Below are positions 1,835-46,229 of a stretch of 64,000 nucleotides of DNA, piece by piece. The notes beneath the pieces are model-generated. The model was not told where the DNA came from. It did not search any database and saw nothing but the letters and a program-made list of their open reading frames with translations. The stretch covers positions 4,177 to 68,176 of the forward strand of contig RFGE01000022.1 of assembly GCA_003696105.1 (NCBI GenBank), read 5' to 3'. The stretch's first letter is position 1, and every line of letters begins with the position of its first letter. This DNA comes from Deltaproteobacteria bacterium (GTDB lineage: Bacteria > Myxococcota_A > Polyangia > Haliangiales > J016). Position numbers and translations under genes: made by a program.

Positions 1835-2340
1835 CGGCGCACCTCGGGCAACCCCTCCGGCGGATCCACGACGACCCGGCGCCGGTCGAGGTCGATGTCG
1901 ACGACGAGGGCGCCGCGGACGAGCGGCAGTTCGCGCTCGACGTCGCCGTCCCGTATGACGAGCCGATCCTGCGCGCCGGGGATGACCGCCTCGATGCGCC
2001 CCCACGGCGTGCCGTCGACCAGCTCGACGGCGCAACCGATGAGGTCGACCTCGAAGACCTCCCCCGGCGCCAGCGGCACGTCGGCGCGATCGACCGCGAC
2101 CGCCGCCCCCTTGAGCGCCTCGGCGCGGTCGCGGTCGGCGACGCCGTCGACGGCGAGCAACACGGCCCCGCGCGTCCCGGCCCGCGCGCTCGCGACCGCA
2201 TAGGGTTCGCCGTCGAGGTAGACGGTCGCGACGGCGTAGAGCGTTTCGCTTTCCGGGTTGTGCAGGTGGACGCGCAGCTCGCCCCGCACTCCGTGGGCGC
2301 GCGCGACGTAGCCGATGAGCAGGAGGCGGTCGTCGGCCAT
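1831..2340 (-). CDS. rimM: 16S rRNA processing protein RimM
   Basis: 169 aa. LLIGYVARAHGVRGELRV... and a PRC-barrel-like C-half. Operon position is between the KH protein and trmD. Confidence 0.9.
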   Translation of the reverse strand: MADDRLLLIGYVARAHGVRGELRVHLHNPESETLYAVATVYLDGEPYAVASARAGTRGAVLLAVDGVADRDRAEALKGAAVAVDRADVPLAPGEVFEVDLIGCAVELVDGTPWGRIEAVIPGAQDRLVIRDGDVERELPLVRGALVVDIDLDRRRVVVDPPEGLPEVRR

Positions 2341-2355
2341 GACCCCGCCGGCGCG

Positions 2356-2601
2356 CTACTCGAGGATCTCGACGAGAATGCGCTTGCGCGACCGCGGCGC
2401 AGCGGCGCCGACGACCTGGCGGATGGCGCGCGCGGTCTTGCCGCCGCGGCCGATGACCTTGCCGAGGTCTTCGTCGGCGACCTCGATCTCGTAGACGTTC
2501 GCGTTGCGCTCCTCGACGAGCTCGACGCGGACTTCCTCCGGCCGGTCGACCAGCCCCTTGGCCAGGTAGCGGATGAGTTCGATCAGATCGGGGGCCGGCA
2601 T
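2356..2601 (-). CDS. KH-domain RNA-binding protein (YlqC/UPF0109 family)
   Basis: 81 aa with the KH GxxG loop (VIGRGGKTARAIR). Conserved position between rpsP and rimM. Confidence 0.88.
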   Translation of the reverse strand: MPAPDLIELIRYLAKGLVDRPEEVRVELVEERNANVYEIEVADEDLGKVIGRGGKTARAIRQVVGAAAPRSRKRILVEILE

Positions 2602-2616
2602 CGGCGACGCGCGGGC

Positions 2617-2862
2617 CTACTCCGCAGCCGCGGCCTGCAGCTTGCGGGCGAGGTTGCGAACGGTGTCGGTCGGCTGGGCGCCGGTCGACAACCAGTAGCC
2701 GTAGCGTTCCTGGTCGAGGTGAACGACCTTGGCGCGCGGATCGTAATACCCGATCTGCTCGATGAACCGGCCGTCGCGCGGTTTGCGCCGGTCGGCCGCG
2801 ACGATGCGGTAAAACGGCCTCTTCTTGGCGCCCTGGCGGGCCAATCGGATCGAGACTGCCAT
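2617..2862 (-). CDS. rpsP: 30S ribosomal protein S16
   Basis: [42 protein letters not shown] is a canonical S16 N-terminus. ATG at 2862 is chosen over the upstream track start at 2934. Confidence 0.95.
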
Positions 2863-2872
2863 AGAGCGCGGC

Positions 2873-2901
2873 AACCTACACGCGACCGACGACCCTGTCA
2901 A
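2873..2901 (-). promoter_or_regulatory. candidate sigma70-type promoter of the rpsP operon (near-leaderless)
   Basis: On the minus strand: TTGACA (2901..2896), a 17-nt spacer, TAGGTT (2878..2873), then only 10 nt (gccgcgctct, no SD) before ATG 2862. Confidence 0.4.
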
Positions 2902-2976
2902 CACCCGAAATCTCCGCGCCGGGCGCGGCCGCACACGCAGCGCGCGGCCGCGGCGCCGTGCTATATCCGGGCCGTC

Positions 2977-4653
2977 GTGGTGATCGTCAGACGTGCGCTC
3001 GTCGCCTGCTGCGCCGCGGCCCTCGCCGCCTGCTCCGCGCGGCCCAAGACCGCGGGATCCGGCGACTCGGCCGGCCGTCTGACCGTGTTCGTCACCACGG
3101 AGGTCAAGGGCCAGACCGAGCCGTGCGGCTGTACGAGCGACCCGATGGGGGACCTCGCGCGCACCGCGGCGCTGATTGCAGGCGCACGGCGGGCCGGGCC
3201 GGTCGTGGTCGTGGACGGGGGATCGCTGCTATACGGCGAGGCGCGGGTGCGCCCGGACCGCGCCGTACAGGCCGAACGCAAGGCCGACCTCGTCGCGGAG
3301 GTCTACCGCGACCGGCTCGGCGCCGCCGCCATCGGGTTGGGCCCGTTCGACCTCGCGAGCGGCCCGGACGGGGTGCGCCTGCCGCGCCAGGCGGCCAACG
3401 CGCGCGGCGTCCGCACCGAGCCGCCGAAGGTGATCGACGCCGGCGGCGTCCGCGTCGGCGTGTTCGGGGTGGTCGACCCGGCGCGGGTGGCCAAGGCAGG
3501 TGTCGACGCTTCAGACCCGGTCGCCGCGGCGCGCGACGCGGTGCGGTCGCTGGCCGCCGACGGCGCGCAGGTGATCGTCGCGCTGCTCCACATGAGTCGC
3601 GCCGACGCGCGGTCGCTCGCCGCGGCGGTGCCCGGCATCCACCTGGCCGTCGTCGGCGCCGATGCGCCGGAGCCCGACCGCGTGTCGCCGGCGCCGGAGC
3701 GCGCGGGCGACGCGTGGCTGGTGCAGCCGGCCAACCGCGGCCAGGTCGTCTCCCGGATCGATCTCACGTGGCGCGGCCCCGGGCCGCTCGCCGACGCGAT
3801 CGGCCCGGCGCGCGCGCGCGCCGAACTGGCCGAGCTCGACCGGCGCATCGCAGTGGTCGAGGCGGACGTCGCCAAGTTTGCCGCGGACCCGGCGGCGGAC
3901 CCGACATTCGTCGCCGCCCAGCGGGCGGATCTCGCCGAGCTGCGCGCGCGCCGCGCCGCGCTGGCCGCGGAGCCGCTGCGGGTGCCCGCCGAGGGCAGCT
4001 ACTTCGTGCTCGAGCAGATCCCGATCCGCAAGGCGCTCGCGTGCGACGCCGACGTGGTGGCGAAAAAGCGTGCGTATGACCTGGCGGTGGGCCGCGACAA
4101 CCTGGCGCGCGCGCCGGCCGAACCGCCGCCCGTGCCGCCGGGCCAGGCGGGCTACGCCGGCATCGGCGAGTGCGCGTTCTGCCACGCCGACGCGGTGGCG
4201 TTTTGGCGCGGCACCGTCCACGCCAGGGCGTGGGAGACCCTCGAGCAGCTCGGCAAGCAGTACGACCTCGAGTGCGTGTACTGCCACGTGACCGGGTTCG
4301 ACCGGCCGGGCGGCGCGACGCTCAAGACGCTGGCGAATCCGCCGGAGGGCGAGTCGCTGCGCGACGTCCAGTGCGAGGTGTGCCACGGGCCCGCGTCGCT
4401 GCACGTCGACGCCGACGGCAAGGAACGGCCGCGGTCGCTGGTGCGGGCGCCGCCGGTCGACACCTGCGTGACATGCCACAACGAGCTGCACTCGGATACG
4501 TTCGACTACGAGGCGTATTTGCGCGACGTCACCGGGCCCGGCCACGGCGAGGCGTTCCGCGCGCGGCTCGGCGACGGGCCGACCGGACGGCAACTTCGCC
4601 GCGCGGCGCTCGAGGCGGCGGGGGCTGCGATCGGCGAGGGATGCGACAAGTAG
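2977..4653 (+). CDS. lipoprotein: degenerate UshA/calcineurin-like N-domain fused to a tetraheme c-type cytochrome (c554-like)
   Basis: GTG 2977/2980 gives [23 protein letters not shown] (signal peptide plus LAAC lipobox). The C-terminus has four CxxCH motifs (CAFCH, CVYCH, CEVCH, CVTCH). The N-domain is collinear with 5'-nucleotidase N-domains but lacks their metal-ligand motifs. The start codon is uncertain. Confidence 0.8.
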
Positions 4654-10418: not shown

Positions 10419-10865
10419 ATGCCGATGCTCAAACCGGGCGACAAGGCCCCCGACTTCCAAGTCACCGCGCACGACGGCTCGACCGTGCGCCTGTCCGACT
10501 GCGCGGGCAAGCGCGTCCTGTTGTGGTTCTACCCGAAAGCCGACACCCCCGGTTGAACGATCGAGGGCAAGGGATTCCGGGACCGAATCCGCGAGTTCGA
10601 CAGCAAGAACACGGTCGTCTACGGCGTGTCGTTCGACACGGTCGACGAAAACCGCGCGTTCGCCGAAAAGTTTTCGTTTCCGTTTCTGCTGCTGTGCGAC
10701 ACGGACCGCACCATCGGCCTGGCCTATGGCGCCGCCGACGCGCCGGACGCGGGCTACGCGAAGCGCATCTCGTACCTCATCGGCCCCGACGGGACGATCG
10801 AACGGGTGTACGAGTCGGTCGACGTGAACGCACATCCGGCCCAGGTGCTCGCCGACATCGGATAG
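10419..10865 (+). CDS. bcp: Bcp/PrxQ-type peroxiredoxin with in-frame TGA (probable selenocysteine) at the peroxidatic position
   Basis: ATG 10419, then MPMLKPGDKAPDFQVTAHDGSTVRLSDCAGKRVLLWFYPKADTPG[TGA 10554..10556]TIEGKGFRDRIREFDSKNTVVYGVSFDTVDENRAFAEKFSFPF.... This is one continuous frame with the track ORF 10626..10865. The TGA aligns with Cys of the FYPKAxTPGC(T) motif. Confidence 0.8.
10561..10600 (+). promoter_or_regulatory. candidate bacterial SECIS hairpin
   Basis: Starts 5 nt after the TGA. Lower stem is TCGAG (10561..10565) with TTCGA (10596..10600). Upper stem is GGATTC (10572..10577) with GAATCC (10585..10590). The apical loop CGGGACC is G-rich. Folded by eye only. Confidence 0.4.
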
Positions 10866-11036
10866 GAGCGCCACGGCGCACAGGCGCGCCGGCGGAAGTG
10901 CCACGGGCGAGGGTCGGCGCACGCTCGCAGCGCACGAGGGCGCATATGAACGTGCGGTACCGGAAGGCGCGAGGGCGTACACCGGCGATCGCCGTCCGAT
11001 CGCGGCCGCAGCCAGTGGCTAGGCGCAACGTCCGGC
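10865..11036 (+). mobile_element. MITE-like element, copy A (degenerate 3' end)
   Basis: Collinear with 27521..27696 and 58342..58516 (TAGGAG...AGGCGCGCC...GGCGCACGC..GCAGCGCACGAGGGCGC...GATCGCC...GCAGCCAGTGGCTAGGCGCAAC). The 5' TA is part of the bcp TAG stop. The 3' end overlaps the last codons of the kinase gene. Confidence 0.65.
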
Positions 11037-12734
11037 GAGTCGTTCGCCTACCGCGGCGCCGGCGGGTGCGCGCTCGGCTGCGCCTGCGCGATAGGCCGGC
11101 AGCCAGATCGTGAATCGCGCGCCGCCGCCGTCGCGGTTGGCGGCGTGTAGCGTCCCGCCGGCGCGCTCGATCAACTGCCGCGAGATCCACAAGCCGAGCC
11201 CAGTCCCCTCGCCGGGAGGCTTCGTCGTGAAAAACGGCTCGAACAGATGGTCCATCGCGCCGGCCGCGATGCCCGGCCCGTCGTCGTCGACGTCGATCTC
11301 GACGCCGCCGCCTGCGGGGGCCGCGCGGACGACGATCGCGCCGGTGCGGCCGTCCATCGCGGCGCGCGCGTTGAGGATCAAGTTGACGAGGACTTGTGCC
11401 AGTTCGCCGGGATAGCCGGCGACACAGTCGACGCCGGCGGCGAGATCGACGCGAACCGAGGGTCCGGCGCGCAGCGCGGGCGCCGTCGTCTCGATCGCAT
11501 CGTCGACCGCGGCCGCGACGGACACCGGGCCCGGCGGCCCCGGATCGCGCCGGCTCGCGCGGGACAGTCGCGCGGCGATGCGCCGGATGCGCTCGATCGA
11601 CCGCTCGAGCGCTGCGACGTCCTCTCGCTCGTCGTCGCGCGCGCGGTGCAACAACAACGCGGCGCTCGCCGACACGACCATCAACGCGTTGTTGATCTCG
11701 TGCGCGATGCTCGACGCCATCACGCCCACGGTCGCGAGTTGTTCCTGATGGGCCAACGCGCGCACCATCTCGACCCGCTGCCGCGCGTGGCGCCGCTCGG
11801 ACCACAGGAGCCACGCAGCCGCGCCAGCGACCAGCAGGATCGCGACCGCGGCGATCGCGCCGAGCCGGTGCGCGGCCGCCGTCACCGGGGCGGCGAGCGC
11901 CGCGTCGCTCGCCGCGGCGACGACCGACCACGCGCCGCCCGTCCCCGGCACGGCGGCGACGGCGCGGGTCGCGGCGCCGTCGCGCGGCGGAGCGGGTCGC
12001 GCGCCGGCGGCGTACAACACGGCGCCATCCGGGCCGACGACCCACGCGCCGCTGTCGTCGCCCGCGTCGCCCTCGCCGCGCAAGTCGGCGAGCGCGGCGG
12101 CGGCCAGGGCCGCGGCGTCGATGTTGACCGACAGCCGCAGGCCCGACGCCAGCGGCGTGTCGAACGTGAGGTCGCCGCCGTGGCGGAGACATGCGTCGCA
12201 CACGCCGTAGCCGCCGCCGTGCGCGGCGACCCGGTGCCGGTGGCCGGCGTGCGCCGCGGCCGCCGCGGCCGGGGCGAGGTCGTCGGTCGCGAGCACCCGC
12301 CCCCGCCCGTCGTGCACCAGCAGGTGAATGCCGGCGGCGCGATCGTCGTCGGTGAGCCACGCGGCCAGCCGCGCGTGCAGCGCGGCCGGGTCGGTCGTGG
12401 CATCGACCTCCGCCGCCGCGCGGGCCGTCGGGTCGCCGAACCGGTGCCGGACGTCCGCGAGCGTCGCACCGATGCGCGCCGCCGCCTGGCGAGCGAGGCG
12501 CGCTCGGTCGCGCGCGGCGAACTGGCGGGCGACCGCCGCCGTGTGGTGTGCGCCGGCGGCCGCGACGGCCGCGGCCGCGAGCGCGGCCGCGGCGAGCAGA
12601 GCGACCGGCAACGACAGACGGCGGAGTTGCGACGGCGCTGCGACCACAGCCGCACGCGATGCAAGCGCGCTGCCAGGCAAACCCCTCGATACGGCCGCGT
12701 GGCCGCTGCCCGCCGCCGGCGCCTGCGTTTCCAA
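11019..12734 (-). CDS. sensor histidine kinase (TM/periplasmic sensor, HisKA, HATPase_c)
   Basis: H-box SIAHEINNAL, N/G boxes LILNARAAM, DDGPGI, GTGLGLWISRQLIERAGG. The N-terminus has a TM segment (LPVALLAAAALAAAAVAAAGA). The start is uncertain. Confidence 0.88.
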   Translation of the reverse strand: METQAPAAGSGHAAVSRGLPGSALASRAAVVAAPSQLRRLSLPVALLAAAALAAAAVAAAGAHHTAAVARQFAARDRARLARQAAARIGATLADVRHRFGDPTARAAAEVDATTDPAALHARLAAWLTDDDRAAGIHLLVHDGRGRVLATDDLAPAAAAAAHAGHRHRVAAHGGGYGVCDACLRHGGDLTFDTPLASGLRLSVNIDAAALAAAALADLRGEGDAGDDSGAWVVGPDGAVLYAAGARPAPPRDGAATRAVAAVPGTGGAWSVVAAASDAALAAPVTAAAHRLGAIAAVAILLVAGAAAWLLWSERRHARQRVEMVRALAHQEQLATVGVMASSIAHEINNALMVVSASAALLLHRARDDEREDVAALERSIERIRRIAARLSRASRRDPGPPGPVSVAAAVDDAIETTAPALRAGPSVRVDLAAGVDCVAGYPGELAQVLVNLILNARAAMDGRTGAIVVRAAPAGGGVEIDVDDDGPGIAAGAMDHLFEPFFTTKPPGEGTGLGLWISRQLIERAGGTLHAANRDGGGARFTIWLPAYRAGAAERAPAGAAVGERLAGRCA

Positions 12735-17964: not shown

Positions 17965-19340
17965 CAGCGCAGCTCCGCCGGCCGCTCGTCGGCGGTCAAG
18001 ATCAAGATCGCCTCGGCGGCGGTGATCCGGCCCACGTCGTCGCCGTCGACCAGCGCGCGCGCCAGCGGCGCGAGGTCGACCTGCGCGTCCAACCGCCGAA
18101 GGGCGATCGCGGCGTCCACCCGCAGCGCGCTCGCGCCGAGCTGCTCGACCAGCGCGTCAACCGCGCGGGTGTCCCCGAGCGCAGCCAGCGCGTGGGCCGC
18201 GCCGACGCGGTCGCCCGCGGTGAGGATGTCGGCCAGCGCGTCGCGCGCCTCGTCGTAGCCGGCGGCGCCGAGGGCCACTGCCGCGCGCGTGCGCGCAACG
18301 CGCGCCGAACCCGCGAGGGCTTCGCGCAGCACCGCGAGCCCGGCGTCGTCGCCGAGCAGCGCGAGCGCCGCGGCGGCCCCGAGCCGGTGCGTGCGCACGC
18401 GCAGCATCGCGCGCAGCGCGGTGCGGCCGGCGTCGTTGCCGAGCCGCGCGAGCGATCGCGCGGCGTCGAGGCGCACGTCGCGGCTCGGATCGCGCAACGC
18501 CGCCTCGAGCGCCGCTACGCCGCGCGCGTCGCCGGACCGGGCGAGCACGTACGCGACGCGCAGGCGCGCGGCCGGGCTCGGCTCCTCGTCGAGCCGCCGG
18601 CCGAGCGCGGCGAGCGCGTCCGGATCGCGCACGCGGGCGAGCGCGAGCGCGGCGTCGCGCGCCAGCCGAGGCGACGGCGACCGCATCAGCTCGCGCAGCG
18701 CGCCGACGGCGGCGTCGCGCAACACCGCCGGATCGACGCGCGCGTCCGCGGCCGGCGGCGGGGCGGGCTCCGGCGCCGGCGCCGGCGCGACGGGCGCATC
18801 CGTCGCGGCGGTCGCATCCGTCGGAGACGACGGCGACACCGCGTCGACGATCGCGATCGCCATGCCCCCGACGCAGACCGCCCCGGCGATCGCGAGCGCG
18901 CGGCGCTTGTTTCCGCGCCGGCCGGCCGCCGGCGACGCCGCACCGCGCTCCTCCGCGTCGATGCGCGCCTGCGCGCGCTCGTCCCACGTGTGCCCGCGCC
19001 CGACGACCGGGGCCGACACCGGTGACGCGGGCTCGTCGTCCCACAAGTCGTCGACGTCGCGCGGCGAATCGGCGACCCGCGCGACGGCCTCGTCGGCGCG
19101 CTCGTACCACGCCACGCTCATCGCGGTCTCCTCGGCGCGCGCCGGCGTGTTTTCGGCGCGCACCTCGATCGGCGGTGCGCGATCGGCGTCCGCGGCCGCG
19201 TCGCCGTCGGCGCAGGCCGCCGGTGCGCCGTCGGCACAGGCTGCCGAGCAGTACGTGTACACGTGCCCGCCTCGCACCCGCGCGACCGGCGCACGCGCGG
19301 GATCGATCGGACGCTGGCAGGTGGGACAGACGGCGGTCAC
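17964..19340 (-). CDS. TRASH-type zinc-ribbon / single-TM / HEAT (PBS-lyase-like) repeat protein
   Basis: GTG 19340 overlaps the upstream stop (GTGA). The N-terminus CPTC-x22-CSAAC fits TRASH (C-x2-C-x19-22-C-x3-C). TM segment ALAIAGAVCVGGMAIAIVDAV. The C-terminus has repeated RDP..RL.AA.ALARLGD..A..AL HEAT-like units. Confidence 0.75.
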   Translation of the reverse strand: MTAVCPTCQRPIDPARAPVARVRGGHVYTYCSAACADGAPAACADGDAAADADRAPPIEVRAENTPARAEETAMSVAWYERADEAVARVADSPRDVDDLWDDEPASPVSAPVVGRGHTWDERAQARIDAEERGAASPAAGRRGNKRRALAIAGAVCVGGMAIAIVDAVSPSSPTDATAATDAPVAPAPAPEPAPPPAADARVDPAVLRDAAVGALRELMRSPSPRLARDAALALARVRDPDALAALGRRLDEEPSPAARLRVAYVLARSGDARGVAALEAALRDPSRDVRLDAARSLARLGNDAGRTALRAMLRVRTHRLGAAAALALLGDDAGLAVLREALAGSARVARTRAAVALGAAGYDEARDALADILTAGDRVGAAHALAALGDTRAVDALVEQLGASALRVDAAIALRRLDAQVDLAPLARALVDGDDVGRITAAEAILILTADERPAELR

Positions 19341-20410
19341 GGGAACACCAACACGTTGTCGGCGCCGTGGCGCGCGATCAGGTCGTCGATGTAACGCAGC
19401 GCGTAGTCGCGCCGCGCCATCAGCGCCGCGACCTCGCTGTCGTCGAGCAACTCGTGAAACGGCCCCGGATCGTCGGCGAGCGCGGCGCGCACCGCCTCCT
19501 CGTCGAGCGCGCGCAACGCCGCCACCAGCGACCGCGAAAACTTCTGCACCTTCATCAGGTAGGAGCGGACCTTTTCCGCCCCGGCGGGCTGCCGCCCAAA
19601 CGACAAGGTGTTGTCCATGTAGTACAAAAACGACCCGTCCGGCGACGAGCGGACGTTGCCGCCGCTCCACCGATCGAGATTGTTGATCAGAAAGTCGAAC
19701 ACCACCATGTCGCTGATCTGCGCGACGAGCCGCGCCTCCCGGTACGGCACCGGCTCGCCGATGGTCAGATAGCGGTGCCAGGTCACGACGCCGTCGACGC
19801 TGTCGACCGGGTAGCCGTCGATCCTCGGCTTGGCGATGCGCGGGATCCACCAGGACAGCTCGCCGACCACCCAGCCGTCGTTCTGGATCATCTCCGCTCG
19901 CAGCCGCGGCGCAATGTAGGCGCTGTCCGGTTCCAGGTGCGACAGAATGTCGTCGACGCGGAACATGCGACCGATCGCCGGCGCCACGGTACTCAACCCG
20001 AGCAGCCGGTTGATCCGGTACGCCGCCACCTCGCGGCGCGGCACGGTCTGCCAGTTGGTCTGGCGCGGCTTGAACGCGGCGCGCGCGCCGTTGTCGAAGT
20101 CGATCCGCAGCGAGATCGACGACCCGCCGAGGTTGAACGCCACGCGGTCGATCTCGCCGGTGCGCAACGGCGCGAGCAGCTGGTCGTCCGCCACGCCGCG
20201 AAACAGGCCGAGCGCGCGGCGGACCGGGCCGAGGCTCGGCCGCTCCGGCCAGCGGATTTCGACCCGCTCGGCCGGAGCCGCGGGCGCGCGGCCGGCATGC
20301 GCCCAGCGGCCCCGAAGCTCGCGCACGCCGGCGGTCCCCGCCAGCGCGAGGCCGGCGGCGAGCGAGACCCCGACGGCGAGCTCGACGGCCACACAGCTCC
20401 CGAGGCGCAC
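19337..20410 (-). CDS. secreted Fam20/Four-jointed-like protein kinase homolog
   Basis: Signal/TM N-terminus (VAVELAVGVSLAAGLALAG). Motifs AAFKP, REVAAYRINRLLGLSTVAPAIGR, ISDMVVFDFLINNLDR and YYMDNTLSFG are collinear with the Fam20C kinase-core motifs as I recall them. Confidence 0.7.
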   Translation of the reverse strand: MRLGSCVAVELAVGVSLAAGLALAGTAGVRELRGRWAHAGRAPAAPAERVEIRWPERPSLGPVRRALGLFRGVADDQLLAPLRTGEIDRVAFNLGGSSISLRIDFDNGARAAFKPRQTNWQTVPRREVAAYRINRLLGLSTVAPAIGRMFRVDDILSHLEPDSAYIAPRLRAEMIQNDGWVVGELSWWIPRIAKPRIDGYPVDSVDGVVTWHRYLTIGEPVPYREARLVAQISDMVVFDFLINNLDRWSGGNVRSSPDGSFLYYMDNTLSFGRQPAGAEKVRSYLMKVQKFSRSLVAALRALDEEAVRAALADDPGPFHELLDDSEVAALMARRDYALRYIDDLIARHGADNVLVFP

Positions 20411-20800: not shown

Positions 20801-21361
20801 TCAGGGACGCGGAGCCGCCAACAGGGGCTCGACCTGGTCGGCGAGCCAGCCGTCGAGGTCGACGGCCGCCCCGCGGTGAACCGCGACGACCACGCCGCGC
20901 CGGTCGATGACGACCAGGTGCGGGATGGTCGTCACCCGGAAGGCGTCGGCGACCGCGCCATCGTCGCTGAGCACGGGGAACGTGACGCCGAGGCGCCGCG
21001 CCGCGGCCAGCGCGGCCGCGCGGCCAGCGCGGCCCTCGATGTTGACCGACAGCACGCGGAAGCCATCGCCGCGAAGGCGCCGCCAGGCCCGCTCGATCGC
21101 CGGCATCGCGCGAATGCACGGCCCGCACCAGGACGCCCAGAAGTCCACGAGCACGACATCGCCGCGGGCGTCGGCCAGCGACACGCGACCGCCGCCGTCG
21201 GCACGCGGCAGCGAAAACAGCGGCGCCATGTCTCCCGGGGCGACCGGCCGCATCGCGTGCCAGTTGCGCGCGACGTCCACCGCGCCGAACGCGGCGGTCG
21301 CGAGCGCCAGCGCGATCGCCGCCCGGCCCGCCCACCGCGCGCGGCGGCCCGGATCAGCCAC
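20801..21361 (-). CDS. TlpA/ResA-family periplasmic thiol:disulfide oxidoreductase
   Basis: Signal anchor plus VLVDFWASWCGPC (thioredoxin CxxC) and a ...TIPHLVVID motif. GTG start. Confidence 0.88.
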   Translation of the reverse strand: MADPGRRARWAGRAAIALALATAAFGAVDVARNWHAMRPVAPGDMAPLFSLPRADGGGRVSLADARGDVVLVDFWASWCGPCIRAMPAIERAWRRLRGDGFRVLSVNIEGRAGRAAALAAARRLGVTFPVLSDDGAVADAFRVTTIPHLVVIDRRGVVVAVHRGAAVDLDGWLADQVEPLLAAPRP

Positions 21362-30725: not shown

Positions 30726-30783
30726 GCTCGCCCGGCGGCCGTGATAACGTCGCGTCTGCGCTCGCGTTTTACTCGTGGGGCCG

Positions 30784-33700
30784 ATGACCGACGACGTCAC
30801 GCCGACCAACCCGCAGCCGATCGACGTGCTGCAGGCGCAACTGGACGCGTTCCGCAAGGACCCGACCGACGCCGACCTGTACGTCGAGCTGCGCGCGGCG
30901 CTGCGCAAAAGCGGTCATCCGGACCTGTTGGCGGAAATTTGCGAGCTGCGCGCCCCACACGAACGCGACCCTCGCAAGGCGGCCGCCATGTGGTCGGAGG
31001 CCGGCGAGGCGCGCCTGCTCATCGGCGACGAACACCGGGGAGACCGCGACCTGCGACAGGCGCTCGCCATCGACCCGGCGGACGAGCGCGCCGCCGCCCG
31101 CTACGCCGAACGCCTGATGGTCGCCGAGCGGTTCGCGGACGCTGCAGCCGTTCTCGAGGCCGAACTCGCCGAACTCGAGCGCCGAGCCGCGGACGCGGCG
31201 GGCGCGCGCAAGCGAGCGGCCGAGCCGTTCGCGGCGCGGCGCGCGCAGCGCCACCGACTGCTCGCGCAGCTTTGGGACGAACGCCTGGGCCGGGTCGACC
31301 GCGCGCTACATCACTGGCAGCGCGCGTGGCGGCTCGAGCCCGACAAACCGGACGCGATCGAGGCGGCGCGCGCAATCTACGCGAGCCTCGGCGACCACGA
31401 CATGGTGGCCGAGTTGTATCGCGCCGAGTTGGCCGCGATCGGCGAGCGCGCGCCGGCCCGGCGCCGCGCCGAACTCGAACTCGCCCTCGGGCGTCTGATG
31501 CTGCGGCGCGGCGACGCGGCCGCAGCGGCAGCGCACGCGGAGAACGCGGTCGCGCTCGCGCCCGACTGGGCCGACGCGCGCGAAACGCTGGCCGAGGTGT
31601 ACGCGTCGCCCGTGTTCGCCGGCGAGTCCGATCCACAGCGGCGCGCCGGCGAGCTGTTCGTCGAACTCGGCCGAGCGGCGCTCGACGACGACGACCGCGA
31701 ACGCGCGATTACCTACCTGCGCCGCGCGCTCGGCGTCGACCCGTACTCGCGGGCGGGCACCGAGTCGCTCGAGGAGGCGCTGGCGATCGACGACCGTTGG
31801 GAGGAGCTCGATCGGTTGTACCAGCACCGTCTCGGCCTCACCGACGATCCACGCGAGCGACTCGTTCTGCTGCGCAAGCGCGCCCTGCTGTACGAGGAGC
31901 AGATCGACGACCGCGACGAACTCATCGCCATCCTCGAACAGATCGCGGCGGCCGAACCGCCGGGCGGCGACGCGAGCCGCCGCCTCCGACAGCTGTACCG
32001 GGAAACGGAGAACTGGGCCGCGCTCGCCGCGCTGATCGAGCGCGACATCGCGAACGTGCCAGAAGAGCCAGGCCCGCTCACGGACGCCCTGCTCGAACTG
32101 GCGACGATCGCCAAGGAGCACCTGCGCGAACGCGACCGCGCTGCCGAGTATCTACACCGCATCCTCACGATCGATCCGACACATCCGGAGGCGCTCGCGC
32201 GCTATCACGAGCACTTCCGCGAGCGGCGCGACTGGCGCGGCCTGGCCGACCTCACCGAGTTCGCGATCGACAACGCCCGCGACGCAGGCGCGCCGCCCGG
32301 CGAGATCGTCCGGCAACTCGAAGAATTGGCCCAGCTCGCCGAAATGCGGCTCGGCGACGTCGACCGCGCGGTCGCGACGTGGCAGCGCGTGCAGCAGATC
32401 GAGCCCGACAATCCGCGAGCCCGCGAGGCGCTGCGCCGGTTGGCATCCCGCGCGAAGATGTGGGAGTCGCTCGTCGGCGTGCTCGAGCAAGAGGCGGCGC
32501 AAGCGCAAAGCCCGGCCGAGCGCGCCGAGGCATTGCGCCGCATCGCTCAGGTCTACCGCGAGCGGCACGTCCATCCGCGCCAGGCGATCGCGCTGTTCGA
32601 GGAAGTGCTGCAGACGTTCCCTGGCGACGAAAGCGCGCTCAAAGCGCTCGCGGAGCTGTACGAGCGCGAGGGGGACGATGCCGGGCTCGCGCGCACGCTG
32701 CGGCGGCAGCTCGACGTCGACGCGCGGCGCGTCGCCGAGCGCCTGCGCGCCGAGGGCAAAGCGGCTGCGTCCGCACGCGACTGGCCGGTCGCGCAGCGGG
32801 TCGAACGGCTCACCACGCTGCGCCGGCTCGCAACGATGTACGAGCAACGGCTCGCCGACGTCGAGGGCGTCGTGTTCGCGTGCGCGGGCATTCTCGAGAT
32901 TCTGCCGGGCGACCGCGACGCGCTCGACCGGATGGAGCGCGTTCTCGAACGCGCCGGCGACACGGTCCGCCTCGAACAGACGCTCGAGTACCACGCCGAG
33001 GCGGCGACCGGCCCGGCCGAGCGCGCGCGCGTGCTGCGCAGGCTGGCGCGTCTCGCCCGCGACCGCGACGACCCCGCCGCGGCCATGGAGCGGTGGGAGC
33101 GCGTGCTCGCGGCCACGCCCAACGATGCCGAGGCGCTCGTCGAACTCGCCCACCTGTACGAGACGTACCGCCGGTGGTCCGAGCTGGCCGACGTGCTCGA
33201 GCGCTCGCTGGCGCTCGAACGCGCCCCCGCCGCCGGCACGCCGGAAGCCGCCCGCCGCGCGGCAAAACTGAAGAAGCTCGCCCGGGTCGTCGACCGGGAA
33301 CTCGGCGACGACGCGCGCGCGATCCGCGCCTGGCGGCAATTATTGGATATCCAACCGAAAGACCGCGACGCGCTCGACGCGCTGGCGCGGCTGTACGAAG
33401 CGCGCGGGCAGTGGCGCGACCTCACCGAGATCCTGGAGCGGCAGGCCCCGCTGTACGCGCACGACGACCCGGCAAAGGCGGCCGAAGTCATTCTCCGGCG
33501 AGCGCGCCTGCTCGAGGAGCGCCTCGGCGCGCCGGTCGAGGCGATCGACGCGCTGGAAGCGCTGCTGGCCGACGTGGACCCCGGGAACCTCGACGCACAC
33601 AAGGCGTTGCGCCGCCTGTACGAAGCGCGCGGGGACTTCGACGCCGCGGTTCGAATCGCCGAACGCGAGATGTACCTTAGCGCCGGCGAGGCCGAGAAGA

Positions 33701-36700
33701 TCGCGCGGGGCATGGAAATCGGCCTCTTGTGCCGCGACCAGCTCGGCGATGCAACCCGCGCGCTCCAGGCGTTCGAGCGCGTGCTCGAGCTGGCTCCCGA
33801 CCACGACGAAGCGCTCGCGGCCGCGGCCGAGTTGTACGCGCAGGTCGGCGACTGGCACCGGCACGTCGATGCGCTCGAACGGCGCCTGCCGCGCGTCGCG
33901 GCGGAGCGCGACCGCCGCGCGCTGTACATCCGCATCGCGCAGGCCAAAGCCGAGCGGCTGCACGACCCCGAGGGCGCATTCGCCGTGTTGCGCACCGCAC
34001 ACGAGGAGTTGCCCGATCCCACCACCATCGCCGAACTGCGCCGTGCCGCGGAGGCCTACGGCCTGTGGGCCGAACTCGCTGACGTCTACGACCGCGAGCG
34101 CCGGTCGCTCGCCGGAGCCGGCGGTCCGGCGGACCCGGACGCGTACGTCGCGGCGTCGCGCCAGGTGGCCGCGATCGCGGAGCGGCGCCTCGGCGACCGC
34201 GCGCGCGCCATGGATGCACTGCGCGACGCGCTCGCCGCGGCGCCGCTGGACGACGGGTTGGTCGCCGAGGCCGAGCGCATCGCACTCGAAGCCGACGAGC
34301 CCGCGCTGTGGCAGAAGCTGATCGACGTCCTCGGCGTACCGCTGACGGCGGTCGGTCGAGCCGAGCGGGTCGCCCTCCATACGCGGCGAGCGCGCATCTA
34401 CGAGGAGCGGCTCGACGACCCGAAAGGCGCCTTCGAAGAGCTGCTGCGCGCGTTCGCCTGGGAACCGCAGCGCGACGAGACCCGCCAGGCGATCTACGCG
34501 CTCGCCGAGCGCACGCGGCGGTGGACCGACGTGGTCGCCGTAGAGGCGGCGCTGTTTCAGCGCGCGCCGTCGCGCGAGGAGGCGATCGCCGTGTTGCGCC
34601 GCAAGGCGCAGGTGATCGAGGACCACCTGCACGAACGCGTTCGCGCGTTCCGCACCCACCTGGCCGCGTTTCTGCTCGCGCCGGACGACGGCGACACCGT
34701 CGCGCACCTGTGGCGGCTCGCACGGGACATCGGGGACTATCGGCCCGCCGATCGACGGCCGAAGCCGGAGCCGCCGCCGGCGCACGTCGAACCGACAGAG
34801 ATCGACGAACCGGCCGCGGTGCAGTCGGCGCGCCCGACCGCACCGGGGCGACGGGCTGCCGATACCGTGCCGGCGCCGCGCATCGAAATTCAATCGACGA
34901 CGTCGCGGGGCGAGCCGACACAAGAACTCACGCTGTCGGATCTCATCCCGCTGGCGGGCGGCCCGCAGCCGCCGCCGCGGGAGGACTCGACCGTCGAACT
35001 CGACCTCAACGATCTCGAGCCGGTCGCCCGGCAGGGCGAATCTCGCGGCGATCCGACCATCGAGCTGCGGACCGAGGATCTCATCCAGGCCCTCCGACCC
35101 GGCGACGACACGGCGCCGGTACCGCCGCCGCAGTCGTCGCGCCCGCGGCTTCCGGGGGTCCGCGCGCCGGGCCAGCCGCCGCCCCCGCCGCCGCGCCGGC
35201 CGACGATTGAACGCCATCCGCGATCTCCCCGGAGCGCGACGCCACCTGCCGCGAAACGCGCCGCGCCACGTCCCGTCCGCGGGCGCTCCCTGCCCGCGAT
35301 GCCCGACCGCGACTACGCATCCGCGTGGGACGAGTTCGCCACTGCCTACGAGTTGCTACCGGCGGCGAGCGACGCGGACAAGCTGCGCTGGCTGTTCCGC
35401 GCGGCCGAGGTGTGGGAAGCCGGCGCCCGCGACGTGGACCGCGCGTTCGAGGTGCTCGAGCGCGCGCTCGCGCTCGCTCCCGACGACGCCGAGCCGCGCG
35501 CCCGATTGCACCGGCTCGCCGCTGACCACGACCGGTGGGATCGACTGGCGGAGCTGTACGAGGCCGCCGCCGAACGAGCGGACACCGCCGACACGGCGGC
35601 CGCGCTGTACATGGAAGTCGCCGCGATCCGCGCAAATCAGGGCCATGCACAGCAAACCGAACGGTTGTACCGTAAAGTGTTGGGCATGCGACCGGATGAC
35701 GCGGTCGCGCGCGAGCGCCTCGAGGCGCTATATCGAGCGTCCGACCGCTGGGTCGACCTTGCGGCGTCGCTCGAAGAGCGCACGGATCCTCGCCTCGGTG
35801 CCGCGGCACCGGAAGCCGAACGCCCCGCGCTGTTGCGCGAACTCGCATCGATCTACCGCGACAAACTTCACCGACCGCACGACGCGCTCGATGCGCTCGA
35901 TCGACTGCGCAAACTGGTGCCGGACGATCTCGACGTCCTCGATCAGATCGCGGAAATCAACCAGGAAGCGGGCCATTTCAGCGCTGTAGTCGACGCGCTT
36001 CACAAGATCGCGGACCTCGCCGAGGGCACGCCGCGCGCACGCGAGGCGCTCCGCCGCATCGGCGCCATTTACGAGCGAGAGATCGAACTACCGGATCGCG
36101 CGATCGATGCCTACAACGAGATCATCGCCGCGTGGCCCGACGATGCGGATGCGTACGCCGCGCTCGATCGCCTGTACGAGAGCCACGCGCGCTGGCACGA
36201 ACTGGCCGATACACTGAGGCGTCGCGCGTCACTCGCCGACGACCCTGCCGAGCGCGCCGCGCTATTGCATCGGCGCGCGCGCGTACTTCTCGATTGGCTC
36301 GGCAACCCGGACGAAGCGGCCGCCGCGCTGCGCCACGCGCGCACGCTCAATCCCGACGACCCGCAGCTCGCCGACGATCTGGTCACCGCACTCGTCAAAG
36401 CCGGCCGCGAACGCGAGGCCGCCGCGGTGCTCGAAGGCCGAGTCGAAGCGCTCACCCGCGACGGCGCGGCCGCCGGCGACATCGCGGCGCTGTGGATCCG
36501 CCTGGCGCAGCTCCGCGCCGATGCGCTCGACGACATCGACGGCGCACGGCGCGCGCTCGACCGCGCGCTCGAGTTGGTGCCCAATCACCCGACCGCGCTG
36601 TCGGTCCACACGCGCCTGGCCGACACGGACACCGACCCGCGTGCGTACGCGGAGGCGCGCCTGCGCGAAGCCGACGCGCTCCGCGACATCGACGATCAGA

Positions 36701-39225
36701 TCGCCGCGTTGCTCGACGCGGGCCGCACGCTGCGCGAGCGCTGCGGCGATTCGGACGCGGCCCGCGCGGCGTTCGAACGCGTGCTCGCCCTTCGCCCCGC
36801 GCATCCCGAAGCGACCTGGGAGTTGGCCGGCCTCATCGAGGAAAGCGGCGATCCCGACGCCGCCGCGGAGTTGCTCGAGCGCCAGCTCGACCAGGAGGCT
36901 CTCGCGCCCGCAGACCGCGCTCGAATCCTCACTCAGCTCGCCGCGCTCGCGCGCCGCGCCGGCGTCCCCGCCGCGGCCGAGCGGCGCCTCGAAGAGGCGC
37001 TGCGCGCCGTGCCGGGCCACGTGCCGGCGATCCTGGCGCGCGCCGATCTGCTCGCCGAGAGCGAGCAGCACGAGCAGCTCGTCGCGTTCTTGCAGGAAGC
37101 TCGAGCGCACGTCGACCGCGACGCAGGCGACGCCCGCGCCGAGATCGACCGCCGCCTCGCCGCAGCGTACGAGGCGCTGGGCCGCGACGACGATGCGTAC
37201 CACACGCTGCTCGAAGCCGATCGCCGCCATCGCGGCAACCTGTTGGTCAAACTGGCGCTCGGCGAAAACCGCTACCGCGCGCGCCGCTGGCGCGAAGCGG
37301 CGCTCCATCTCGGGGCGCTGGCGGACCATCCGGACGCGGACAAGCACGCAGCCGAGGTCGCGGAGGGCCTGTACCACGCAGCGCTCGCCGAGATCCGCGC
37401 CCTGCGTCCCAACAAGGCCGAGCCGCTGTACCGGCGCGCCATCGAACTCAAGCCAAACTACGCGCCCGCGCTGCACGCGCTCGCCGAGTTGGCGATGGAG
37501 CGCGGCGACATGCACGAAGCCGCGGACCTGCTCACCAGACAGGCGACGGCCACCGAAGATCCCGCCGAGCGCGTGCGCCTGTTCGAGGCGCTCGGTGACC
37601 TCGCACTGATGGCGCTACACGACGAACAGCGCGCGCGGGTATGCTACGAAGCCGCCGTGCAGGCGGCATCGCCGCTGGGCTCCGAGCACATCGCATTGCT
37701 CGAGAAGCTGCTCGAGCGACAAGACCTGGCCGGCGACCACGCGGGCGCCGCGCGCACCGCGGAGCTGATGGCGTCGTTCGCGGCCGATCCGGCGGCGCGC
37801 GCCGCTCGGCTGGTCGCGGCGGCGCAGAACTACCTCGCCGCAGGCGACGAAGACCACGCGGTCGCGGCGGCCGAGCGAGCCGTCGATGCCGATCCCTACG
37901 ATCTCACCGGGGCCACGATCGCGTCCGAGCTGATGATGAAACGCGAGGCGTACGATCGCGCCGCCGAGGTGCTCAGCCGCGCCCTGAGTGCGGCGGCGCC
38001 GGCCGACGACGTGACAGCGGCACGCGCCGCGGACCTGTGGCGGCGGCTGGCCGACGCGCGCCGCAGTCGCGGCGATCTCAAGGGCGCCGTGACCGCGTAC
38101 GAACGCGCCGTCGACGTCGCGCCCGAGTCGGACGCCGCCCTGCGCGCGCGCCGCGAACTGCTCGACCTGTGGGATGACGACGACGAGCGTCGCGACCGCT
38201 GCCTCGCGTTCGCCCGCGAGATCGCGCGCGTCGACCAGCGCCCCGCAGACATCCTGGCGTTGGCGCGCATGCTGTGTCGCGCTACCTCCGCCGGGCCGGT
38301 GCATGTCGACGGCAGCCGCACCGCGCTCGAACTCGCGGCGGCCCTCGGCGAGTCGCTCGGGCCGGACGACGTCGCCTTCTTGGCGAAATACCCGGAGCGC
38401 GTGCTCGACGTCGATGAGGCATACCGCGGCGCGCTCGACGACAGCGATCGCGCGCAGCTGATCGCGGACCCGAGGGACGAGCCGCTCGCCTCGGTTCTCC
38501 AGGTGTTGTGGGAAGCGGCGCCGCTATTGTGGTCGGAACCCGCGGACGCGCTCGAACGCATGGGGATCCCCGAGGCCGAGCGCGTCGGCGCGCGCTCCGA
38601 CCTCGTGGCGGCCGTGATGTATCCGCACATCGCGCGCGCTCTCGGCGCCCCGCGCACCGTGCTGTACACCGCCCAGACCGGCGCCGACATCACCGTCGCG
38701 TGCGTCGCACCGCCGATCGTCGCGCTCGGTCGCCGGTTGCAGGTCACCACCGGCGGAGAGCGAGGCGACGATGCGCCGGGCGATCTCGAGCTGCGCTTCC
38801 TACTGGGGCGCGCCGCCGAGTTTGCGCGGCCCGAACGCGCAATCGCGGTCGGGCTGCCGCGCGATCAGTTCGCCTCCCTCGTCGCATCGCTTCGGCGCGC
38901 GTTCGGCCCGGGTCCGTCGCGCGACGACATCGCTGCCGGCCAGCGAGAACAGGACGCCACGCTGCGCAAGACCTTGCCCGTGAAAGTGCGGACACGGCTC
39001 GAAGAGATCCTCGCGAGCGCGGACCCGCGCGATCTGGACCCGGACCGCTACGTCGCGGCGTGTCACCGGGCGGCGGATCGCGCCGGCCTGCTCGTGTGCG
39101 GCGACATCGCGACGGCGATCCGCGTCGCCGGCGGACCGGATCGAGCGCGCCACATCATCGACGTCGCGCTGCGCGACGCCTACCTCGACGCGCGCGCGCG
39201 CCTGGGCGTCGCCACCGATGGCTGA
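30784..39225 (+). CDS. giant TPR-repeat protein (~2810 aa) with internal Pro-rich linker and non-TPR C-terminal domain
   Basis: Single uninterrupted frame of 8.4 kb. Dozens of TPR-like A..(Y/L)..AL..(D/N)P...A...L units. ATG 30784, or GTG 30775 as in the track. Confidence 0.9.
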   Translation: MTDDVTPTNPQPIDVLQAQLDAFRKDPTDADLYVELRAALRKSGHPDLLAEICELRAPHERDPRKAAAMWSEAGEARLLIGDEHRGDRDLRQALAIDPADERAAARYAERLMVAERFADAAAVLEAELAELERRAADAAGARKRAAEPFAARRAQRHRLLAQLWDERLGRVDRALHHWQRAWRLEPDKPDAIEAARAIYASLGDHDMVAELYRAELAAIGERAPARRRAELELALGRLMLRRGDAAAAAAHAENAVALAPDWADARETLAEVYASPVFAGESDPQRRAGELFVELGRAALDDDDRERAITYLRRALGVDPYSRAGTESLEEALAIDDRWEELDRLYQHRLGLTDDPRERLVLLRKRALLYEEQIDDRDELIAILEQIAAAEPPGGDASRRLRQLYRETENWAALAALIERDIANVPEEPGPLTDALLELATIAKEHLRERDRAAEYLHRILTIDPTHPEALARYHEHFRERRDWRGLADLTEFAIDNARDAGAPPGEIVRQLEELAQLAEMRLGDVDRAVATWQRVQQIEPDNPRAREALRRLASRAKMWESLVGVLEQEAAQAQSPAERAEALRRIAQVYRERHVHPRQAIALFEEVLQTFPGDESALKALAELYEREGDDAGLARTLRRQLDVDARRVAERLRAEGKAAASARDWPVAQRVERLTTLRRLATMYEQRLADVEGVVFACAGILEILPGDRDALDRMERVLERAGDTVRLEQTLEYHAEAATGPAERARVLRRLARLARDRDDPAAAMERWERVLAATPNDAEALVELAHLYETYRRWSELADVLERSLALERAPAAGTPEAARRAAKLKKLARVVDRELGDDARAIRAWRQLLDIQPKDRDALDALARLYEARGQWRDLTEILERQAPLYAHDDPAKAAEVILRRARLLEERLGAPVEAIDALEALLADVDPGNLDAHKALRRLYEARGDFDAAVRIAEREMYLSAGEAEKIARGMEIGLLCRDQLGDATRALQAFERVLELAPDHDEALAAAAELYAQVGDWHRHVDALERRLPRVAAERDRRALYIRIAQAKAERLHDPEGAFAVLRTAHEELPDPTTIAELRRAAEAYGLWAELADVYDRERRSLAGAGGPADPDAYVAASRQVAAIAERRLGDRARAMDALRDALAAAPLDDGLVAEAERIALEADEPALWQKLIDVLGVPLTAVGRAERVALHTRRARIYEERLDDPKGAFEELLRAFAWEPQRDETRQAIYALAERTRRWTDVVAVEAALFQRAPSREEAIAVLRRKAQVIEDHLHERVRAFRTHLAAFLLAPDDGDTVAHLWRLARDIGDYRPADRRPKPEPPPAHVEPTEIDEPAAVQSARPTAPGRRAADTVPAPRIEIQSTTSRGEPTQELTLSDLIPLAGGPQPPPREDSTVELDLNDLEPVARQGESRGDPTIELRTEDLIQALRPGDDTAPVPPPQSSRPRLPGVRAPGQPPPPPPRRPTIERHPRSPRSATPPAAKRAAPRPVRGRSLPAMPDRDYASAWDEFATAYELLPAASDADKLRWLFRAAEVWEAGARDVDRAFEVLERALALAPDDAEPRARLHRLAADHDRWDRLAELYEAAAERADTADTAAALYMEVAAIRANQGHAQQTERLYRKVLGMRPDDAVARERLEALYRASDRWVDLAASLEERTDPRLGAAAPEAERPALLRELASIYRDKLHRPHDALDALDRLRKLVPDDLDVLDQIAEINQEAGHFSAVVDALHKIADLAEGTPRAREALRRIGAIYEREIELPDRAIDAYNEIIAAWPDDADAYAALDRLYESHARWHELADTLRRRASLADDPAERAALLHRRARVLLDWLGNPDEAAAALRHARTLNPDDPQLADDLVTALVKAGREREAAAVLEGRVEALTRDGAAAGDIAALWIRLAQLRADALDDIDGARRALDRALELVPNHPTALSVHTRLADTDTDPRAYAEARLREADALRDIDDQIAALLDAGRTLRERCGDSDAARAAFERVLALRPAHPEATWELAGLIEESGDPDAAAELLERQLDQEALAPADRARILTQLAALARRAGVPAAAERRLEEALRAVPGHVPAILARADLLAESEQHEQLVAFLQEARAHVDRDAGDARAEIDRRLAAAYEALGRDDDAYHTLLEADRRHRGNLLVKLALGENRYRARRWREAALHLGALADHPDADKHAAEVAEGLYHAALAEIRALRPNKAEPLYRRAIELKPNYAPALHALAELAMERGDMHEAADLLTRQATATEDPAERVRLFEALGDLALMALHDEQRARVCYEAAVQAASPLGSEHIALLEKLLERQDLAGDHAGAARTAELMASFAADPAARAARLVAAAQNYLAAGDEDHAVAAAERAVDADPYDLTGATIASELMMKREAYDRAAEVLSRALSAAAPADDVTAARAADLWRRLADARRSRGDLKGAVTAYERAVDVAPESDAALRARRELLDLWDDDDERRDRCLAFAREIARVDQRPADILALARMLCRATSAGPVHVDGSRTALELAAALGESLGPDDVAFLAKYPERVLDVDEAYRGALDDSDRAQLIADPRDEPLASVLQVLWEAAPLLWSEPADALERMGIPEAERVGARSDLVAAVMYPHIARALGAPRTVLYTAQTGADITVACVAPPIVALGRRLQVTTGGERGDDAPGDLELRFLLGRAAEFARPERAIAVGLPRDQFASLVASLRRAFGPGPSRDDIAAGQREQDATLRKTLPVKVRTRLEEILASADPRDLDPDRYVAACHRAADRAGLLVCGDIATAIRVAGGPDRARHIIDVALRDAYLDARARLGVATDG

Positions 39226-46100: not shown

Positions 46101-46229
46101 CCCGATGCGCGATTGTAGCCGCAATCGCGCGAGGCCACGACCACTGGCGACCACGCTGATGCGCCACAGCGTCAGGCAGCACGCGGATCGAGGAAGCGCG
46201 CGCCGCCGGCCGAAACGCGCGGCCGCCGG

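Follow-up and report, generated by a model that had tools for sequence, protein, structure and literature searches.

A probable selenocysteine codon, with a putative SECIS hairpin, in a Bcp/PrxQ-type peroxiredoxin gene of a metagenome-assembled Deltaproteobacteria bacterium

The gene considered here lies on contig RFGE01000022.1 of GenBank assembly GCA_003696105.1 (Deltaproteobacteria bacterium), within a stretch of 64,000 nucleotides that was analysed as a whole and that we call the window. On its + strand, a single frame of 148 codons runs from an ATG at 10419 to a TAG ending at 10865, with no frameshift and with one in-frame TGA at 10554-10556. The frame encodes a peroxiredoxin (Prx) of the Bcp/PrxQ type, the TGA stands where this family carries its catalytic cysteine, and a hairpin follows directly downstream. 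We read the TGA as a probable selenocysteine (Sec) codon and the hairpin as a putative selenocysteine insertion sequence (SECIS). The features, with the evidence for each in parentheses, are as follows.

10419..10865, +: predicted complete selenoprotein gene for a Bcp/PrxQ-type peroxiredoxin of 147 residues with Sec at residue 46 (frame, AhpC-TSA profile, PDB homologs, conserved columns)
10533..10556, +: active-site motif P39-K-A-D-T43-P-G-U46, or PxxxTxxU (conservation in aligned relatives)
10554..10556, +: in-frame TGA, probable Sec codon at the peroxidatic position (Cys in protein homologs, TGA in genomic and metagenomic relatives)
10561..10600, +: putative bacterial SECIS element within the coding sequence (minimum free energy fold, presence in relatives, covariation, rare codons, criteria for bacterial SECIS elements)
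10695..10697, +: codon for Cys93 (LLCD), candidate resolving residue (outside the Sec position, no other Cys is conserved)
10764..10766, +: codon for Arg116, the arginine conserved in peroxiredoxin active sites (conservation in aligned relatives, alignment with 3drn)

Translated in frame, 10419-10868 reads MPMLKPGDKAPDFQVTAHDGSTVRLSDCAGKRVLLWFYPKADTPG, then the internal stop TGA, then TIEGKGFRDRIREFDSKNTVVYGVSFDTVDENRAFAEKFSFPFLLLCDTDRTIGLAYGAADAPDAGYAKRISYLIGPDGTIERVYESVDVNAHPAQVLADIG, then the terminal stop TAG at 10863-10865. A mechanical list of open reading frames (ORFs) shows this frame as two pieces, 10419..10556 (45 residues) and 10626..10865 (79 residues, opening on GTG). The GC content of third codon positions (GC3) is 0.93 before the TGA and 0.88 after it, and in the 64 kb this is the sole credible in-frame TGA with flanking coding signal. 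A second candidate, at 3513 on the − strand, was rejected, as it appears to lie antisense to the + strand gene at 2260-4653. The NCBI record for the locus, RMH44808.1 ('MAG: peroxiredoxin [Deltaproteobacteria bacterium]', from a contig of 74,656 bp), is a 101-residue protein that begins just 3' of the TGA and is 99% identical over the part of the query that it covers. Its opening residues (MEGKGF…) imply an ATC start codon at 10560-10562, four bases past the TGA. This call is an annotation artefact, and its product is without the active site. Selenoprotein genes are known to be systematically mis-annotated in truncated form (PMC13326102).

When the TGA is replaced by Cys, residues 6-129 of the product match positions 1-123 of the 124-position Pfam profile AhpC-TSA (PF00578) with E=5e-33. 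The best NCBIfam match is the Bcp model NF006960, at 111.2 bits and below the equivalog cut-off of 140; by best match the protein thus belongs to the same subfamily as Escherichia coli Bcp, but by this profile score it is no equivalog of that enzyme. The best PDB matches are all Bcp/PrxQ proteins (3drn, 5enu, and 3gkk among them), and in the PDB alignment the TGA codon is aligned with the peroxidatic position of Sulfolobus solfataricus Bcp (3drn). The local sequence is WFYPKADTPG-TGA-TIEGKGF, and every full-length protein-database homolog shown has Cys at the TGA position (WFYPKADTPGCTIEG). In an alignment with 122 relatives, 43 columns reach a conservation of 90% or more, and the window protein has the majority residue in every one of them, where the median relative has one mismatch. 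This conservation extends to both sides of the TGA: the 45 residues before it and the 102 after it are equally conserved (80% and 76% identity to the closest metagenomic relative, L121).

PxxxTxxU is the defining motif of Sec-containing peroxiredoxins (PMC13188914). In 123 aligned relatives the proline, the threonine, and the Cys/Sec column of this motif are invariant, an invariance that is partly built in by the search patterns. The arginine corresponding to Arg116, in a column that the search patterns do not constrain, is present in 123 of 123 relatives and is aligned with the R of ...ARITFVI... in 3drn. Position 93 is Cys in 92 of the relatives, Ser in 27, and Ala in 4. Residue 51, five positions past the TGA (+5), is Lys, so that the Bcp-type resolving Cys has no counterpart there; about 50 of the 123 relatives do have Cys at +5, which marks a mechanistic subtype and not the family. 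A sequence-only reading of this stretch had claimed a full Bcp/PrxQ protein in one frame from ATG 10419, coding-like GC3 across the TGA without a frameshift, a TGA exactly at the family's catalytic Cys, a missing resolving Cys at +5, and a gene that automated annotation would truncate. The frame, the profile match over the entire length, the alignment with 3drn, Lys51, and the NCBI record bear out each of these points, and its observation is confirmed.

The relatives of the gene look different depending on whether proteins or DNA are searched. In the protein database the full-length homologs are all Cys forms and at most 69% identical to the window protein. At the DNA level, the pattern TTYTAYCCN10ACNCCNGGNTGAAC (F-Y-P-x3-T-P-G-TGA-T), scanned over contigs of one genome per species, matched at least 120 genome loci, against a chance expectation of about 17 on a rough estimate that assumes uniform composition. 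Essentially all of the matches listed translate as complete PrxQ-type proteins with a single TGA at the same codon, and about 40 of the listed genome TGA forms are 52-70% identical to the window protein. The hosts of the listed loci include Acidobacteriota, Binatia, Myxococcota, Geobacter, Syntrophobacter, Planctomycetota, Actinomycetota, Chloroflexota, and Gemmatimonadota, and cultured isolates are among them: Myxococcus sp. RHSTA-1-4 (L106), Effusibacillus consociatus (L018), and Clostridium argentinense (L120). Among the best 80 relatives on metagenome contigs, 74 have TGA and 6 have TGC or TGT; the closest of these 80, L121, with 77% identity, carries TGA followed by the same hairpin. The protein-database picture is misleading because gene callers truncate the TGA forms. 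Judging from these relatives, TGA is the normal state of the clade to which the window gene belongs and, since it is present in 74 of the 80 nearest DNA-level relatives, would be its ancestral state.

Four of the contigs with Binatia- or Acidobacteria-like Sec-Prx genes bear unexpected labels: L054 (CAMBFS010000005.1) is labelled 'Klebsiella pneumoniae' (57% GC), L055 'Patescibacteria group' (71% GC), L078 'Rickettsiales' (62% GC), and L005 'Clostridia' (63% GC). Mis-binning or mislabelling of contigs from metagenome-assembled genomes (MAGs) is the probable cause.

The hairpin at 10561-10600 begins 5 nucleotides past the UGA. Its minimum free energy fold (−11.2 kcal/mol) has a lower stem of 10561-10565 with 10596-10600, internal loops, an upper stem of 10572-10577 (GGAUUC) with 10585-10590 (GAAUCC), and an apical loop at 10578-10584 (CGGGACC), 21 nucleotides past the UGA. 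The same two-stem fold is present in L121 and L005. Published constraints on the bacterial SECIS (bSECIS) are a loop of 3-9 nucleotides, an upper stem of 4-16 base pairs, G in the first two loop positions, a spacing of 16-37 nucleotides, and a minimum free energy of −7.5 kcal/mol or lower (PMC13188914). The window element has a 7-nucleotide loop, a 6-base-pair upper stem, G at loop position 2, a 21-nucleotide spacing, and the free energy given above. For its stem to be Watson-Crick throughout, two rare codons are required in this genome of 73% GC with GC3 near 0.9: GGA, which makes up 6% of the Gly codons of the window, and CGA, which makes up 7% of the Arg codons. An Rfam scan of the window at the gathering threshold returned a tRNA-Leu only and nothing SECIS-like. 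Single-sequence folding and recoding statistics did not separate the hairpin from background in this GC-rich sequence, and evidence was taken from comparative tests; the significance that we would assign to the hairpin comes only from its comparison with relatives.

Among the relatives, putative SECIS hairpins occur in two registers, numbered here with the T of TGA as nucleotide 1. The type A hairpin has a stem of nucleotides 13-20 with 24-31 and a GUU loop, and it is encoded by G-[C/R/S]-G-F-R-D (GGU YGC GGG UUC CGC GAC C). It is present (nucleotides 13-31) in 82 of 89 sequences with C, R, or S at +5. The remaining sequences, including the window's, cannot form type A. The type B hairpin (nucleotides 19-37), in which a stem of nucleotides 19-24 with 32-37 encloses a CGNGAYC loop, is encoded by G-F-R-D-[R/G]-I or G-L-R-D-R-A and is present in 22 of these 32 sequences, with most of the others shifted by one register. 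The arms change together. In type B, GGAUUC/GAAUCC alternates with GGGCUC/GAGCCC, which shifts the peptide from F..I to L..A, and a further arm variant is GGGUUC/GAGCCC; in type A, UGC…CGC alternates with UCC…CGG, and GGG UUC with GCG UUG. Compensatory changes from A-U to G-C and from U-A to C-G are present. It appears from these sequences that RNA structure constrains the protein sequence beside the active site, with the register tracking the +5 residue and the arms co-varying with the amino acids.

Covariation was counted in an alignment (A1) of 30 sequences that were chosen by a peptide criterion and not by pairing, with the window's two-stem structure as the model. In this alignment 80.3% of cells pair, compared with at most 61% when the partners are slid; 14 double-sided changes were found, a number reached by 1 of 500 shuffles, and the covariation score was reached by 0 of 500. 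Over nucleotides 10-42, TGA forms fold with a mean of −12.0 kcal/mol (n=121) versus −7.5 kcal/mol for Cys forms (n=14; Mann-Whitney p=9e-5), a contrast to be discounted in that it rests on 14 Cys sequences and on statistics that ignore phylogeny. The sequence-only reading had placed a hairpin at this position, at the distance expected of a SECIS, and had named its conservation in TGA orthologs and the decay of the locus as points on which the case would turn. The hairpin is the predicted minimum free energy structure and is kept with covariation in the TGA orthologs, and no decay is seen, 74 of the 80 nearest metagenomic relatives having TGA in intact frames and the conserved columns being kept. 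Its selenoprotein interpretation is thus supported by the comparative data.

The hairpin is also found beside some Cys codons. In segments comprising the peroxidatic codon plus 48 nucleotides, an intact or near-intact SECIS-type hairpin is present in the TGC forms L201 and L202 (GGGUUCCGNGAUCGAAUCC, at 436-483 in each), in L163 (GGUCGCGGGUUCCGCGAUC), and likewise in L136. Retention of the hairpin in these four Cys forms suggests recent conversions from Sec to Cys. For Prx, a 2006 survey recorded events from Cys to Sec only (PMC1794560).

Taken together, we consider it probable (roughly 86%) that 10419-10865 is a single gene for a thioredoxin-fold thiol peroxidase of 147 residues, in the Bcp/PrxQ subfamily, whose peroxidatic residue is Sec (U46), encoded by the UGA at 10554-10556. 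Several observations weigh against this assignment. Taken by itself, the hairpin does not exceed shuffled sequence in stability (z=+0.25), 65% of synonymous recodings fold at least as well overall, and with G-U pairs allowed all 6 of 6 stem pairs form in 9% of recodings; the window loop, moreover, is CGGGACC versus CGUGAUC in most relatives. No tRNA-Sec, SelA, SelB, or SelD is encoded within the 64-kb window (one tRNA, for Leu; Pfam scans of 30 window proteins). A TGC codon becomes TGA by a single base change, and the source of the sequence is a MAG. Finally, close relatives do use Cys, as is seen in the homolog P0001/L208 (ena:ERZ25039483:contig_37948, 251201-252250), which is 69% identical, has 73% GC, and has a PALP gene directly downstream and a methyltransferase-like gene (N6_Mtase/Eco57I-like, weak Pfam matches) upstream. 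These surroundings resemble those in the window, where a histidine kinase gene (11019-12734) is inserted between the prx gene and PALP. The segment of P0001/L208 that is equivalent to the SECIS encodes another peptide (GKGLTTDHEQ), and this hairpin does not form in it. No synteny of the window neighbours with TGA-form loci was found, the only match being the weak one of PALP beside this Cys form, and tRNA scans of 120 homologous loci gave no linked tRNA-Sec.

Most of these points would also fit a pseudogene or an error, that is, a Cys-type Bcp gene in which TGC or TGT became TGA by mutation or in sequencing or assembly, such that the product has 45 residues or is absent. The short mutational distance, the MAG source, the uniform Cys of the full-length database homologs, the Cys form in a partly similar gene context, the window free of Sec machinery, and a hairpin that is not thermodynamically exceptional are all in its favour. 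Against it, 74 of the 80 nearest DNA-level relatives carry TGA, which would thus be ancestral in this clade, and the Cys-only protein database follows from the truncation of Sec forms by gene callers. The window gene shares its hairpin with the nearest TGA relatives, rare codons giving it Watson-Crick pairs throughout the stem, and it keeps all 43 conserved columns, which lie before as well as after the TGA. We therefore regard this explanation as unlikely, although it is the best placed of the alternatives.

Slightly less likely again is a relic, in which an ancestrally Sec-encoding gene persists, non-functional but not yet decayed, in a lineage that recently lost Sec decoding. Bacteria have often lost selenoproteins and the Sec trait in the course of evolution (PMC1794560), a switch to Cys is seen in some relatives, and the genes of the window include no Sec machinery. 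Against this, neither the protein nor the SECIS stem shows relaxed constraint, and lineages that leave Sec convert the codon to Cys, as in L136, L163, L201, and L202, and do not keep TGA.

That translation starts after the TGA, to give two products or a truncated enzyme with the upstream 45 codons outside the functional protein, is very improbable. NCBI annotated the gene in exactly this way, and the GTG ORF at 10626-10865 exists, but the 101-residue call needs the ATC start at 10560 and leaves a protein without β-strands 1-3 and the entire PxxxTxxC active site; no activity is known for a Prx that lacks its peroxidatic residue. The upstream codons, moreover, are as conserved as the downstream ones and have the GC3 of coding sequence.

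UGA reassignments exist in some bacteria, but an altered code or general read-through by which this UGA would specify one of the standard amino acids (Trp, Gly, or Cys) has nothing specific in its favour and can be set aside almost entirely, since TGA terminates 22 of the 33 confident genes of the window, where it is the commonest ordinary stop and the code is therefore standard, since only one in-frame TGA is flanked by coding signal, and since its position is that of a redox-active Cys, the hallmark of Sec/Cys pairs.

If the UGA is decoded as Sec, synthesis of the enzyme would follow the established bacterial Sec-insertion pathway, which is summarised in PMC13188914. SelB with GTP and Sec-tRNA(Sec) would bind the mRNA hairpin at 10561-10600, and Sec would be inserted at the UGA in place of termination. 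By analogy with Prx chemistry, the U46 selenolate in a pocket formed by Pro39, Thr43, and Arg116 would reduce peroxides and become a selenenic acid, which would be recycled by a thiol. This thiol could come from an external reductant such as thioredoxin, in what is termed a 1-Sec mechanism, or possibly from the conserved Cys93. We consider a 1-Sec cycle with an external reductant because the +5 position is Lys and not Cys, and such a mechanism is plausible on the sequence; it is also possible that Cys93 could act as the resolving residue.

The predicted enzyme falls within a known group, as the sequence-only reading had anticipated in noting that Sec-containing Prx-like proteins are known in some bacteria. 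'Peroxiredoxin (Prx), COG1225 (Bcp), TxxU' is a listed prokaryotic selenoprotein family (PMC9312934, PMC13188914), with WP_011365628.1 as an example, and Zhang et al. in 2006 reported 12 Sec-Prx, three of them in Anaeromyxobacter dehalogenans and others in Geobacter, Syntrophus, and Syntrophobacter (PMC1794560). With this family the window protein shares the AhpC/TSA fold and a predicted Sec at the peroxidatic position within PxxxTxxU, an in-ORF SECIS-type hairpin directly downstream of the UGA, and an occurrence in Deltaproteobacteria/Myxococcota as well as in many other phyla. There is no categorical difference. The window protein belongs to a sub-clade with the sequence WFYPKADTPG-U-T-x-E-G, often with Cys93 (LLCD), in which the window member is without the +5 Cys, and its putative SECIS is in the register of nucleotides 19-37 and not in the commoner one of nucleotides 13-31. 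The window gene is thus, on its sequence, a further member of a selenoprotein family whose Bcp type entered the catalogues in the mid-2000s, and it raises no new mechanistic question.

Compared with the thioredoxin-dependent thiol peroxidases of the E. coli Bcp/PrxQ type (NF006960; 3drn, 5enu, 3gkk), the window protein has the same domain, the same active-site Pro, Thr, and Arg, and a similar length, but those enzymes carry Cys where the window protein would carry Sec. E. coli Bcp has its resolving Cys at +5, where the window protein has Lys. PrxU of Eubacterium acidaminophilum, a Sec-peroxiredoxin shown experimentally by Sohling et al. in 2001 as cited in PMC13188914, shares Sec as the peroxidatic residue and provides an experimental precedent that Sec-Prx are made. 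PrxU belongs to a different Prx subfamily, and membership of its family (NF040737) was rejected: the match covers part of the 233-residue model and scores 52.1 bits, where the cut-off is 270. A Prx-like thiol:disulfide oxidoreductase selenoprotein, a group defined by the motifs UxxC or UxxU (PMC9312934), was likewise rejected, as the sequence U-T-I-E has neither Cys nor Sec at +3. With the bSECIS elements of E. coli fdhF and fdnG and the bSECISearch consensus, the window element has in common a stem-loop within the ORF, an apical loop within 16-37 nucleotides of the UGA, an upper stem within 4-16 base pairs, a minimum free energy below the −7.5 kcal/mol limit, and G in the first two loop positions; it differs from the fdhF and fdnG elements in having no sequence similarity to them, no evident bulged U, and a CGGGACC loop, which could alternatively be drawn as a GGA triloop closed by G-C after a C-C mismatch.

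For the genome, this assignment would correct an annotation: in place of a 101-residue 'peroxiredoxin' without an active site, the real product would be a 147-residue selenoenzyme, and the organism, a MAG of 73% GC labelled Deltaproteobacteria, would be a probable selenium user. More broadly, the protein search gave Cys forms only and the DNA search mostly TGA forms, and surveys of called proteins therefore under-count these enzymes. Surveys that address the antioxidant capacity of soil and sediment communities, or how far these depend on selenium, would be affected by such an under-count. The two SECIS registers, the SECIS-bearing Cys forms, and the predominance of TGA may deserve a dedicated comparative study; the locus itself is not exceptional.

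A wider proposal, for which we would put the odds somewhat short of even, concerns the PrxQ sub-clade with the sequence WFYPKADTPG-U-T-x-E/Q-G. It may be predominantly a selenoprotein clade of soil and sediment bacteria that is largely invisible in protein databases. Its in-ORF SECIS would come in two interchangeable registers (nucleotides 13-31, as G[C/R/S]GFRD; nucleotides 19-37, as GFRDRI or GLRDRA), each dictating the local peptide. In members without the +5 Cys, the cycle would either be truly 1-Sec or be resolved by Cys93, and the Cys forms with an intact SECIS would imply recent reversions from Sec to Cys, a direction unrecorded for Prx in earlier surveys.

The window contains a second gene of the AhpC-TSA/Redoxin fold, at 20801-21361 (−). 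It encodes a ResA/TlpA-like thiol:disulfide oxidoreductase with a WCGPC motif and an N-terminal hydrophobic segment, and it is of the Cys form, without a TGA in its frame. Close to it, at 19337-20410 (−), is a gene for a 357-residue protein with a match to the C-terminal domain of Fam20C (Golgi casein kinase; E=2.5e-9), an unusual family for a bacterium. In a 475-residue ORF at 608-2035 (−), TrmD (tRNA m1G methyltransferase) appears to be fused to a SAM-dependent RNA methyltransferase domain, Methyltrn_RNA_4. Two larger frames are a 2816-residue ORF with strong coding signal at 30775-39225 (+) and, at 42348-46154 (−), a 1268-residue Ser/Thr kinase fused to an AAA_16 ATPase. Genes of this kind, in combination with the 73% GC, have a Myxococcota-like appearance. 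A RimO-like protein is encoded near the prx gene.

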